Below, piece by piece: positions 43,053-44,785 of a DNA stretch of 64,000 nt (its first letter is position 1; every line of letters starts with the position of its first letter). The position numbers were made by a program, and so were the translations under genes. The notes beneath the pieces are model-generated. The model had not been told where the DNA came from. It did no database searches and saw only the letters and a list, made by a program, of their open reading frames with translations. Source of the DNA: an uncultured Candidatus Micrarchaeota archaeon (lineage in GTDB: Archaea; Micrarchaeota; Micrarchaeia; Anstonellales; Bilamarchaeaceae); assembly GCA_963714085.1 (NCBI GenBank), contig OY970229.1, forward strand, positions 128,001-192,000, in the 5' to 3' direction.

Positions 43053-43231
43053 AGTTGATTACTCCATCCGATCCATGCGAACAGAAGACATCGCATTTCA
43101 ATTCTTTTTAGGCCGATCCAAGCATTCTCTTCCTGGAACTGCTTTTCCTAGCCCTTGACGGAAATGGATTGGCGCCGATGCGCCCGCCCTATTGAAAAAG
43201 TTTTTTAAACGTTAACTAGGAAATCCGCTAT

Positions 43232-43290
43232 GGCGATGAAGCTCACCAGGCACTAGACCGAACCGCCCTCACCGGGCTGATGGCTTCTAC
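43232..43290 (+). promoter_or_regulatory. Fluoride (crcB-motif) riboswitch aptamer
   Basis: GGCGATGAAGCTCACC...AACCGC...GCTGATGGCTTCTAC follows the consensus GGCGAUGnnGUUCGCC...AACCGC...GCUGAUGnCnnCUAC; GAAGC/GCTTC pseudoknot; BRE/TATA GAAAAAG-TTTTTTAAA about 25-30 bp upstream; one C-A mismatch in P1. Confidence 0.82.
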
Positions 43291-43309
43291 TTCCAGAGGG
43301 ACAGATGCT

Positions 43310-43462
43310 ATGAACGTTGAAGACGCAAGGGTATGCACGACATGCCTCATGAACACCGGAATGAACATTTTGTTGGCCAAGAAAGACGACGTGTTCGTAT
43401 GCCCCAAGAATCCTGCGCACAGGTTCAGGCTGGGAAAAGACGGCTACCTGAGATCGATTTAG
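43310..43462 (+). CDS. 50-aa putative zinc-ribbon microprotein
   Basis: CTTC...CPKNPAH; ATG 19 nt after the aptamer. Confidence 0.7.
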   Translation: MNVEDARVCTTCLMNTGMNILLAKKDDVFVCPKNPAHRFRLGKDGYLRSI

Positions 43463-43479
43463 CATTCGTATTCGAAGAC

Positions 43480-43908
43480 GGTTTCCATGGACGCGGCTTG
43501 AGCCTCGGCGCGTCAATCGCTCTGGACGACCGGAAAACAAAAGATTAGCGTCTTTCACTCGTCGTCCTTAACCGGAGCAAGCTGCGGCTTGCAATTAAGC
43601 CTAAGGAAAGATTCGTCATACCCTGAGACGAGCGAAAAAAGAGATGCCTTGATTCCGTCAAACAATCGGATCCGCATGACTCCCTTTAGCCGGACCTTGT
43701 ATATAATGCCGCGTTTTCACGTCGGAGAGTTCCGGAAGGCCTGAAACGATGGCTTTGCACAGGAAAAACCGCGAAACGTGTCCCCAAACCATAGGAAACC
43801 CCGGCCTGCGGATGACGCTGACCCTAATCGCCGGTTTTTGGGTTAGGGCGCGCGCAGCGGAAAGAACGGTGTCAGAAAGAGGACTGACACGCTGAAGCAA
43901 AGCGTTTT
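43480..43908 (+). ncRNA. Candidate large structured non-coding RNA, family not recognised
   Basis: No credible ORF; long-range pairing 43480-43490 with 43789-43800 plus several local hairpins with A-rich linkers. Confidence 0.5.
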
Positions 43909-43918
43909 ATAACCTAGT

Positions 43919-44785
43919 ATGGAAAATCAGCTCATGCGGACTCTCATCCTATTGTGCGTACTTGGAATCTTCGCGGTTTTCCTGGCCGGCTGCACGCAGG
44001 CCCCGACCACGTCCCCGCCGCCACAGACGCAGCACCTGTGCAGCGACGGCACCACGATAGTCACGGATATGAGCCAGTGCCCGCAGGTGGACAGCGAGAT
44101 GCTCCAATGCCAGAAGGAGTCCACGGCCGAGGATTCCAACGGCGACAGCCCGCACAGCACGTGCCTCTTCAACCTCGCAGTGGAGCGCAACAACGTCTCT
44201 CTCTGCAAGGAGATATACACCAGCCAGCCGGACTACGCGCAGTACAGCCCGGCCAAATGCGGTGCGCATATCGCGGACAGCATGAACGACCCGACCGTCT
44301 GCGACCAGCTCGGCCTCACGTCGAGCTCGGAATGCTACAGCCAGCTGGCCACCTCGGCCCAGGACCCGACCATCTGCGAGTCCATAAAAACCAGCACGCT
44401 GAGGGACAACTGCATCTACAGCTATGTGCTCGACAATTCGTATGAGATAAGCGACTGGAGCGTCTGCGACAAGCTGACCCCGGCCAGCTCTGACGCGGAC
44501 TACTGCTATTACACCGCGGCGACGAGCAGCGAGAACTCGAAGTACTGCGACAAGATGTCAGGGAGCTCGATCGCGTATACGACCGCGGACTGCTACGGGG
44601 ACGTGGCCTACGGCACGAGCACCCCGACTCTGTGCGGCTCGCTTTCCAAACAGAGCGACAAGGACGAATGCTACTATGACTACGCAACCAGCGCGTACAA
44701 TACGAGCATGTGCAACTACATCTCGAGCCCGACGAAGAAGACCGACTGCATGATGTACGCCAATTATACCGATAGCTACTATTGA
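43919..44785 (+). CDS. Cys-rich repeat lipoprotein
   Basis: Lipobox LAGC; about 7 repeats of CY..(A)....(D)...C..L/I. Confidence 0.8.
   Translation: MENQLMRTLILLCVLGIFAVFLAGCTQAPTTSPPPQTQHLCSDGTTIVTDMSQCPQVDSEMLQCQKESTAEDSNGDSPHSTCLFNLAVERNNVSLCKEIYTSQPDYAQYSPAKCGAHIADSMNDPTVCDQLGLTSSSECYSQLATSAQDPTICESIKTSTLRDNCIYSYVLDNSYEISDWSVCDKLTPASSDADYCYYTAATSSENSKYCDKMSGSSIAYTTADCYGDVAYGTSTPTLCGSLSKQSDKDECYYDYATSAYNTSMCNYISSPTKKTDCMMYANYTDSYY

Follow-up and report, generated by a model that had tools for sequence, protein, structure and literature searches.

A fluoride riboswitch upstream of a lineage-specific Cys/His microprotein gene in an uncultured Micrarchaeota archaeon

Organization of the Locus

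We analyzed a 64,000-nucleotide (nt) stretch of DNA, hereafter the window, from an uncultured Candidatus Micrarchaeota archaeon (GenBank assembly GCA_963714085.1, contig OY970229.1, positions 128,001–192,000 of the forward strand), in which an aptamer of the fluoride riboswitch class lies directly upstream of a small open reading frame (ORF) for a Cys/His-containing microprotein of 50 amino acids (aa). Unless another locus is named, positions are those of the window. Labels beginning with G and L denote sampled genomes and loci, respectively, G000 being the window's own genome. The features of the locus, with the basis of each assignment in parentheses, are as follows.

43194–43209 (+), archaeal promoter, a purine-rich GAAAAAG resembling the transcription factor B recognition element (BRE), then a TATA box, TTTTTTAAA (sequence)
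43223–43296 (+), fluoride riboswitch aptamer, crcB motif (Rfam RF01734 and sequence reading)
43232–43235 with 43244–43247 (+), P1 helix, GGCG/CACC (sequence reading)
43238–43242 with 43283–43287 (+), pseudoknot, P1-loop GAAGC with GCUUC (sequence reading)
43249–43251 with 43257–43259 (+), lineage-specific extra hairpin (12-aptamer alignment)
43265–43268 with 43274–43277 (+), P3 helix, GCCC/GGGC (sequence reading)
43278–43314 (+), candidate expression platform, an imperfect hairpin (fold computation)
43296–43300 (+), Shine-Dalgarno-like GAGGG, 9 nt before the ATG (sequence)
43310–43462 (+), putative CCCH zinc-ribbon microprotein, 50 aa, MNVED subtype (ORF)
43463–43501 (+), remnant consisting of a spacer and the first four codons of an antiporter gene, ATG GAC GCG GCT TGA (blastn)

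A Fluoride Aptamer with an Additional Hairpin

The Rfam fluoride model RF01734 matched positions 43223–43296 on the plus strand with 42.2 bits against a gathering score of 34 (E = 2.5e-8), and the match covers model positions 1–64 of 64. Besides one tRNA, it is the sole Rfam match within the 64-kb window. An initial annotation of this DNA, made from the sequence alone, had read here a BRE/TATA promoter, a near-consensus crcB aptamer with an intact pseudoknot and a 50-aa Cys/His ORF, and all of these were recovered in our analysis, the aptamer by the very Rfam comparison which that annotation had proposed as a check.

Twelve distinct aptamers of the window's archaeal family and class were aligned, and base pairs were counted on a structure that we specified. 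Paired cells made up 92.2% of 192, and the proportion fell to 29–53% when partners were slid by 1–3 columns. Compensatory (both-side) changes were present in eight of the 16 pairs, whereas shuffled alignments had a mean of 3.0 and none of 500 reached eight. P1 and P3 were each paired in 89.6% of cells, with two compensatory pairs each. The pseudoknot was paired in 60 of 60 cells, with one compensatory swap from C-G to U-A in the crcB-linked copy of G050. Because of the Rfam score, the intact helices and pseudoknot, and this covariation, the window element is, as far as comparative analysis can tell, a genuine fluoride riboswitch of the known class, and its ligand is presumably fluoride.

The P1 helix of the window copy contains a mismatch, C43234·A43245, at its third pair, from which the initial annotation had suggested a variant aptamer with changed behavior. 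This suggestion was not supported. The same mismatch occurs in five of the 12 copies (three in the window's own genome, plus G244 and G292), all of which are closely related; the position is otherwise C-G in five and U-A in two. All three aptamers of the own genome carry it, and all score above the Rfam threshold. The third P1 position appears to be variable, and the C·A mismatch is most simply explained as one inherited, tolerated change. What sets the aptamer of this lineage apart, judging from the alignment, is not the mismatch but a small additional hairpin situated between P1 and the AACC junction, a feature that the initial annotation had not mentioned. This 3-bp hairpin is present in all 12 aptamers, its pairs show compensatory changes in three cases out of three, and 86% of its cells are paired; the RF01734 model treats it as a 10-nt insertion.

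The 50-aa Microprotein

The ORF at 43310–43462 begins with MNVEDARVCTTC and later contains CPKNPAH; its full product is MNVEDARVCTTCLMNTGMNILLAKKDDVFVCPKNPAHRFRLGKDGYLRSI. An alternative longer frame from the ATG at 43280 starts inside the aptamer, and this ATG is not conserved, other copies having GATAGC. The window protein belongs to type A of its family, the subtype found nearly always behind an aptamer (see below). Pairwise ratios of nonsynonymous to synonymous substitution rates (dN/dS) among six type-A genes were 0.07–0.30 in 12 of 15 pairs, the remaining three being saturated. Values for the window copy against its relatives were 0.13–0.30, and those of antiporter-linked copies among themselves 0.07–0.13.

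Multiple alignment of 41 family members revealed that M1, C9, C12, C31, and H37 are invariant in all of them, and that N34, P35, F39, G45, L47, and S49 are nearly so. Residues C9, C12, C31, and H37, the putative metal ligands, have the spacing C-x2-C-x18-C-x5-H, and the conserved C-terminal half is basic (H-[KR]-F-[KR]). AlphaFold2, run with this 41-sequence alignment, predicted a helix at residues 10–16 and four short strands, with a mean predicted local distance difference test score (pLDDT) of 88.1 and a predicted template modeling score (pTM) of 0.65. The dN/dS values, the invariant CCCH residues, and the pLDDT together argue that the small ORF is a real gene under purifying selection. Conservation of the microprotein had been another point raised in the initial annotation, and it was borne out.

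The window microprotein had no Pfam hit and no match to any curated family. When the 41 members were compared with Pfam and NCBIfam at E ≤ 1, only sub-threshold matches to generic zinc ribbons were obtained, none of them for the window protein. PF10058 was matched by 17 of the 41 members (best E = 0.0024) and PF21302 by ten; some members weakly matched the RlmA N-terminal, TFIIB, and other zinc ribbons, all below threshold. Structure searches gave a similar picture: Foldseek against the PDB found no match at E ≤ 0.001 (top row 1p91_A, E = 1.3), and VIA-align against 48,161 chains gave a best Z of 3.6 and none at Z ≥ 5. A PDB sequence profile returned only knuckle-level matches to designed C2H2 fingers (1mey and 2i13; CPEC knuckle) with per-stretch E ≥ 8.5, and the nearest clusters in the ESM Atlas were unnamed hypothetical proteins (best score 0.92). 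The ligand pattern and the predicted strands would fit a zinc ribbon; all profile matches are below threshold.

Several other identities were considered and rejected. A Fluc/CrcB protein (PF02537), for which we took a PF02537 match, about 120 aa, and four transmembrane helices as the criterion, is ruled out by the length of 50 aa, the lack of a profile match, and the predicted helix and four short strands. The ligand spacing rules out a classical C2H2 zinc finger (C-x2-4-C-x12-H-x3-5-H, beta-beta-alpha). A haloarchaeal C(P)XCG micro-protein is ruled out by the single CxxC motif (CTTC in the window protein, CP[TE]C in relatives) and by a second ligand pair of the form C-x5-H.

Linkage between Aptamer and Microprotein

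The own genome, a single contig of 1,571,539 bp, contains three RF01734 matches (42.2, 41.6, and 40.1 bits), the window copy being the highest. Each leads into a paralogous CxxC...Cx5H microprotein of 50–52 aa; the two paralogs are 66% and 58% identical to the window protein. Among sampled genomes, eight of nine type-A loci have the aptamer directly upstream, at or above the Rfam threshold in G000 (three loci), G244, G292, G147, and G121, and below it in G411 (28.7 bits). In metagenomes, R1, a lineage aptamer model built in this analysis, detected the aptamer directly upstream of the gene at 18 of 19 type-A loci (one of the 18 truncated by a contig end), many of which are near-duplicates, so that the 19 loci are not independent and the counts overstate independence. 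At the 19th locus, L145, the microprotein is the second gene after an aptamer and a RuBisCO large-subunit gene. None of 26 other family loci has an aptamer upstream of the gene. The initial annotation had proposed looking for such co-occurrence of aptamer and homologs, and had considered a possible new fluoride-response gene; comparison supports the latter well, in that the gene is conserved and under purifying selection, is nearly always preceded by the aptamer in its subtype, and belongs to no curated family.

Other arrangements of the aptamer were also observed. In the region L145:97–1644, the aptamer (97–159) is followed by the RuBisCO large-subunit gene (181–1476; PF00016 and PF02788) and, 13 nt further on, by the microprotein paralog. 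RuBisCO is an unexpected riboswitch target; it may be a further example of an Mg-dependent enzyme made in excess under fluoride. On the same contig (L145:1701–2968), a second aptamer precedes an MFS transporter gene (PF07690, E = 8.5e-43), and the parent contig has three aptamers within ~4 kb. In L139 (305–1254) and L039 (G106:C1:375792–375861 and downstream), an aptamer precedes a gene for a ~290-aa prenyltransferase-type alpha-alpha toroid repeat protein (PF00432, E = 2.6e-19); in L139 this unit immediately follows an aptamer-microprotein cassette, giving two riboswitches in tandem. At a contig edge, R1 gave an aptamer-like match of 26.8 bits (L037:6–61, minus strand) whose target is off the contig; the divergent microprotein gene of this locus (179–328) is on the plus strand.

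Distribution of the Microprotein Family

When 5.8 billion clusters were searched by word index, 17 of 18 candidates were recovered, and no informative name was attached to any of them. An exhaustive profile search of 1.84 billion representatives detected 84 sequences at E ≤ 0.001, 82 of which are 38–69 aa long. Within the phylum, 57 of 401 sampled genomes (G000 included) have a match, among them 33 of the 75 genomes of the window's family, 25 of the 28 of one genus, and eight of the nine of a second family. No match was found in two other large families of the phylum (0 of 94 and 0 of 83 genomes), and every matching genome is labeled as the same family or the same class as the window. In this sampling, the microprotein family has few members, all within the class of Micrarchaeota-like archaea to which the window belongs.

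Family members in the 1.57-Mb own genome total five. In addition to the three aptamer-linked copies, there are two paralogs that lack an aptamer: a type-B gene at C1:1065651–1065800 (minus strand) and a divergent copy, designated type C, at C1:1347527–1347655 (minus strand), whose motif is CPNC...CPSNPVH. Types A and B are 40–50% identical. In a phylogenetic tree of 46 distinct sequences, based on only 50 columns and with many rows being close kin, type B formed a clade of 20 sequences (support 99/90), none of which has an aptamer. The aptamer-linked sequences made up the remaining unresolved grade of the window's family, together with a divergent pair from the second family, f14, whose genomes carry the microprotein as a stand-alone gene. 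The presence of the aptamer required four changes on the tree, compared with a shuffled mean of 15.6. The tree used 14 of the 19 metagenome loci (L130, L136, L138, L143, and L144 were left out) and did not include P-numbered proteins, which have no known context, or L011, L017, L021, and L028, which are absent from the underlying protein alignment. The MNVED subclade, to which the window protein belongs, was found in at least four sources, always with the aptamer.

Type-B genes share a different conserved leader (L012–L035; C1:1065801–1065880 in the own genome), in which [CT]GACCAG lies ~25 nt downstream of a TATA box. A hairpin of 4–8 bp is present in 17 of 21 such leaders, its 3' arm abutting GGAG and then CCCAUG, and its arms covary (GCCGAT/ATCGGC, GCCGG/CCGGC, GCCUG/CAGGC, CCGC/GCGG, and GCUGC/GCAGC). 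This hairpin is too small for an aptamer and may be a stability, translational, or protein-binding element; a degenerate fluoride aptamer is ruled out, as R1 matches nothing there. Most type-B genes (L014–L035) are convergent with a gene for a lipobox-containing, lipoprotein-like protein of ~240–280 aa, located ~120–300 nt downstream on the opposite strand. The Cys-rich motif C..YC....C.G.W..SG[TN]YP[DN]C.C was found in at least eight of the 16 such lipoprotein loci examined. A weaker third microprotein paralog often lies ~1 kb from type-B genes.

An Antiporter Operon and the Origin of the Window Cassette

At one of the paralogous loci of the own genome, L002, a gene for a 388-aa cation/proton antiporter (PF00999) starts 16 nt after the microprotein stop codon; it matches the Na_H_Exchanger profile with 130.6 bits over positions 2–366 of 375. 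Such an antiporter is the gene most often found in second place. The order aptamer-microprotein-antiporter also occurs in G244 and at seven of the 19 metagenome loci, with the antiporter starting 16–18 nt after the microprotein, and an eighth metagenome locus has a distant exchanger homolog. The other 11 metagenome loci comprise five stand-alone cassettes, three that run off the contig end, and L127, L139, and L145. In G180 and L048 the aptamer directly precedes the antiporter gene, with no microprotein.

The antiporters, of about 385 aa, belong to a CPA2 subfamily whose members in these archaea are ~70% identical to those of Deltaproteobacteria, Nitrospinae, Omnitrophica, Methanoperedens, and others, where they carry the source names cation:proton antiporter or KefB. 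We collected 80 loci of this subfamily from species-representative genomes of many phyla (L047–L126). R1 detected an aptamer just upstream on the coding strand at 63 of them, 54 at E ≤ 0.001, and the Rfam model at its gathering score confirmed 18 of 20 weaker R1 matches, missing L112 and L123. This CPA2 subfamily looks like a dedicated fluoride-response transporter, judging from its genomic context. The microprotein lies between aptamer and antiporter at just one of the 63 loci (the G244 genome), so the microprotein is an insertion, specific to this lineage, into a riboswitch-antiporter unit that is itself widespread.

The window cassette retains a trace of this operon. In a blastn comparison, window positions 43232–43499 aligned with the L002 locus at 76%; the alignment begins at P1 and extends 37 nt beyond the stop codon, reaching into the start of the antiporter gene. 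Homology to L002 ends there, where the window reads ATG GAC GCG GCT and then TGA, and tblastn found no further antiporter remnant at the window. The alignment into the antiporter start therefore indicates either a front-end duplication of the operon or a loss of its back end. In this alignment the window cassette is shown to derive from an aptamer-microprotein-CPA2 operon, with the antiporter lost and the front part kept as a stand-alone unit.

A metagenome ortholog, L127, has a 96% identical microprotein and the same downstream lipoprotein gene, which argues against decay of the window cassette. That such a cassette is a decaying, non-functional duplicate after antiporter loss would fit the reduction of the antiporter to four codons and the dN/dS of the window copy, which is somewhat higher than that of antiporter-linked copies; we consider it highly improbable, given an intact ORF, the highest aptamer score of the three in the genome, the conserved L127 locus, and the constant presence of the aptamer in the MNVED subclade.

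The downstream gene itself (window 43919–44785, plus strand) starts 457 nt after the microprotein and encodes a Cys-rich, lipoprotein-like protein of 288 aa with no Pfam hit and two distant paralogs elsewhere in the genome. A relationship with the lipoproteins adjacent to type-B genes was rejected: the similarity is limited to the signal-peptide regions (best E = 0.017 over 22 residues).

Known Fluoride Exporters in the Genome and Its Relatives

The initial annotation had reported no Fluc/CrcB, CLC-F, or enolase gene in the window, and this held. Searches of the whole genome with PF02537 (CrcB) and PF00654 (CLC) gave no match, control genomes being positive in 11 of 14 and 12 of 14 cases, and CrcB proteins taken from two relatives gave nothing better than E = 1.8 as tblastn queries. 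The single-contig genome is 87.65% complete by marker genes, so that the absence of an exporter is strong but not absolute. The only enolase match (C1:1129809–1130651) is outside the window and far from any aptamer; at this locus (L146), five stop codons were reported inside the matched span, yet a 417-aa open frame was also given. The proposal that the microprotein stands in place of a fluoride exporter was borne out in part. It agrees with the lack of CrcB and CLC in the genome; on the other side, the cassette is a duplicate of an operon that ends in a CPA2 antiporter, of which a four-codon stub is left.

CrcB was detected in five of the 401 sampled genomes of the phylum. In G050 and G224, members of the window's family, a fluoride aptamer immediately precedes the crcB gene and a DUF190 gene comes after it, as in the classical arrangement; G050 also has a type-B microprotein without an aptamer. 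Within the family, nine of 99 genomes have an RF01734 match, seven of them above threshold, and two of the 12 matching places (L045 and L046) look like chance matches inside coding sequence. In this lineage, one and the same sensor is thus connected to CrcB in some genomes and to the microprotein and antiporter in others. The two kinds of wiring were not seen together in any sampled genome, the numbers being small.

Promoter and Proposed Expression Platform

The TATA box lies ~27 nt upstream of P1, and a T/A-rich box is found at an equal distance from P1 in both paralogous loci and in related loci. From this spacing we infer that transcription starts near 43228–43232, a few nucleotides before P1. 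GAGGG at 43296–43300 is a plausible Shine-Dalgarno sequence, and GAGG or GGAG is kept at this position in the paralogs. The microprotein ATG (43310) is 14 nt past the end of the Rfam match.

Fold computation identified an imperfect hairpin at 43278–43314 of -10.1 kcal/mol (z = -2.05; six of 200 shuffles fold equally well). Its base pairs join the 3' pseudoknot strand (GGCUUCU) to the spacer and to the A of AUG, and they join GGA of the Shine-Dalgarno sequence to UCC. Hairpin and pseudoknot compete for the same bases and are mutually exclusive. Of 18 distinct type-A leaders, 16 have three or more Shine-Dalgarno bases paired to the pseudoknot-strand region in the minimum-energy fold. Since there is no T-run after the window aptamer by sequence reading, a transcriptional mechanism is less likely here.

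In the mechanism we propose, transcription would begin a few nucleotides before P1. When fluoride is absent, the 3' pseudoknot strand (GCUUC) would pair with the Shine-Dalgarno and start-codon region and block initiation. When fluoride is present, presumably bound as a Mg-F cluster in the manner of other riboswitches of this class, GCUUC would pair instead with GAAGC of the P1 loop; as the two structures share bases, the fluoride-stabilized pseudoknot should free the ribosome-binding site and allow the 50-aa protein to be made. The riboswitch would thus act as a translational ON switch for the microprotein.

Considering all of the above, it is probable that the element is a bona fide fluoride riboswitch which turns on translation of a CCCH zinc-ribbon microprotein peculiar to this lineage. 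Besides the near-duplication of metagenome loci and the incompleteness of the genome already mentioned, several points weigh against this interpretation. A type-A-like homolog in G104 (L011/L007) has no aptamer. The window leader itself is one of the two (with L032) that fail the strict criterion of Shine-Dalgarno pairing; its hairpin is modestly better than shuffles, and the hairpins of the two paralogs alone are indistinguishable from shuffles (z = -1.43 and -0.71). The sequence and structure searches gave no relative hinting at function, and a search of sequencing runs listed five DNA runs (three studies) with the locus and no RNA run.

Possible Roles of the Microprotein

The protein is too small and too polar for a transporter, and that role is ruled out. 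We tentatively favor, at less than even confidence, a soluble zinc-ribbon protein that binds a cytoplasmic partner stoichiometrically and protects or modulates it under fluoride stress. This preference comes from the three separately regulated copies in a 1.57-Mb genome, which suggest a function needed in quantity.

It is also conceivable, though unlikely, that the co-transcribed CPA2 antiporter has in the microprotein a dedicated subunit, accessory or regulatory, and that the stand-alone copies provide more of it. The antiporter gene follows the microprotein by 16–18 nt in G000 (L002), in G244, and at seven metagenome loci, the window copy keeps an antiporter stub, and at 63 of 80 loci the antiporter subfamily is under riboswitch control in its own right. 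However, the own genome has three microprotein cassettes for one antiporter gene, and in G180 and L048, as at 62 of the 63 aptamer-antiporter loci, no microprotein lies between aptamer and antiporter. Moreover, the microprotein follows RuBisCO in L145 and stands alone in f14 genomes, and sister paralogs occur with no antiporter in their vicinity. A complex prediction for microprotein and antiporter, which was run without controls, gave a score of 0.00 and a mark of 0.32 and weighs neither for nor against binding.

Another interpretation, which we hold to be similarly unlikely, is that fluoride induces the riboswitch-controlled copies to back up, or to raise the dosage of, a housekeeping zinc-ribbon microprotein (type B or C) whose function it impairs. 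The same genome does contain aptamer-less paralogs of both types (C1:1065651–1065800 and C1:1347527–1347655), and type B is a separate, well-supported clade that never has the aptamer. Over-expression of fluoride-inhibited enzymes is described as a common riboswitch output in a review (PMC11139923), and riboswitch-controlled enolase or pyrophosphatase genes would be a parallel. On the other hand, at 40–50% identity types A and B differ at many positions and need not be interchangeable, and types B and C have no known function.

Somewhat less probable still is a role as a small regulator that binds nucleic acid and passes the fluoride signal on to other genes in trans. The predicted zinc-ribbon fold, the basic conserved C-terminal half, and the weak, sub-threshold matches to RlmA N-terminal and TFIIB ribbons would suit such a protein, and the small archaeal zinc-finger regulator Brz offers a precedent (PMC2253796); but three copies per genome would be unusual for a regulator, and no match is significant.

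Finally, a functionless leader or coupling ORF that merely transmits the riboswitch decision downstream would account for its constant place as the first ORF after the aptamer and for the very short gap to the antiporter, but is scarcely credible in view of the purifying selection on the protein, the invariant CCCH residues and confident predicted fold, the stand-alone copies (that of the window included), and the paralogs with ordinary leaders.

Comparison with Known Systems

Antiporters are the second most common class of genes associated with fluoride riboswitches, after exporters, according to the review cited above (PMC11139923). The systems that couple a fluoride riboswitch to a Na+/H+ antiporter use the same aptamer class, and the ancestral operon described here likewise ends in a PF00999 antiporter. 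It differs from them in the conserved microprotein between aptamer and antiporter, found only in this archaeal lineage, in the additional stand-alone microprotein cassettes, and in the extra 3-bp hairpin of the aptamer.

In Thermococcus kodakarensis, the fluoride riboswitch lies upstream of TK0513 and not of crcB (TK0514) (PMC4247193); according to a 2021 paper, it was the only one that had been tested experimentally in archaea (PMC8241225). The window locus is similar in that the first gene downstream of an archaeal fluoride riboswitch is not an exporter gene, but crcB is next door in T. kodakarensis, whereas none was found in the genome of the window.

Stand-alone archaeal proteins of <70 aa with one predicted metal site are also known from the C(P)XCG proteins of Haloferax volcanii (such as HVO_0758) and from Halobacterium Brz, and have been tied to regulation or to adaptation to stress. 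The haloarchaeal C(P)XCG group is defined by a length of <70 aa and two C(P)XCG motifs (PMC11241148). There is no detectable sequence relationship with the present family, whose pattern is CxxC...Cx5H, and none of them is reported to be under riboswitch control. Generic zinc ribbons (the RlmA N-terminal domain, lunapark, PhnA/YjdM, and TFIIB) are characterized by two metal-binding knuckles on short beta-hairpins, with which the ligand pattern and predicted strands described here would agree; no protein of the present family reaches a curated threshold, and the window protein has no match at all.

In our literature searches we found no description of a riboswitch-controlled zinc-ribbon microprotein or of DPANN fluoride riboswitches, although the supplements of Baker et al. 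2012 and Speed et al. 2018 may list small ORFs. What appears to be new is a standard sensor wired to a new effector family, together with a small structural insertion in the aptamer; the aptamer class and its association with antiporters were already known.

Implications for Fluoride Resistance

Fluoride riboswitches are the best guide to the genes that cells use against fluoride, and the response beyond export is poorly understood. A broader hypothesis, which is possible but doubtful at present, is that Micrarchaeota-like archaea without Fluc or CLC-F tolerate fluoride by an undescribed system, whose signature parts are a riboswitch-induced CCCH zinc-ribbon microprotein, encoded by as many as three cassettes in one genome, and a highly conserved CPA2 subfamily under riboswitch control in many phyla. 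The microprotein would then be a new effector, for example a stoichiometric protector or a transporter switch, and the CPA2 protein may move fluoride or protons linked to hydrogen fluoride. Narrowly defined and almost always under riboswitch control, the CPA2 subfamily may serve as a marker subfamily. The leaders would be short, promoter-proximal translational switches and could be used as tools. The riboswitch is tightly and repeatedly linked to a protein family without known relatives, in organisms that apparently lack both known exporters, and the microprotein, being small and easy to express, offers a concrete candidate for a novel function in resistance.

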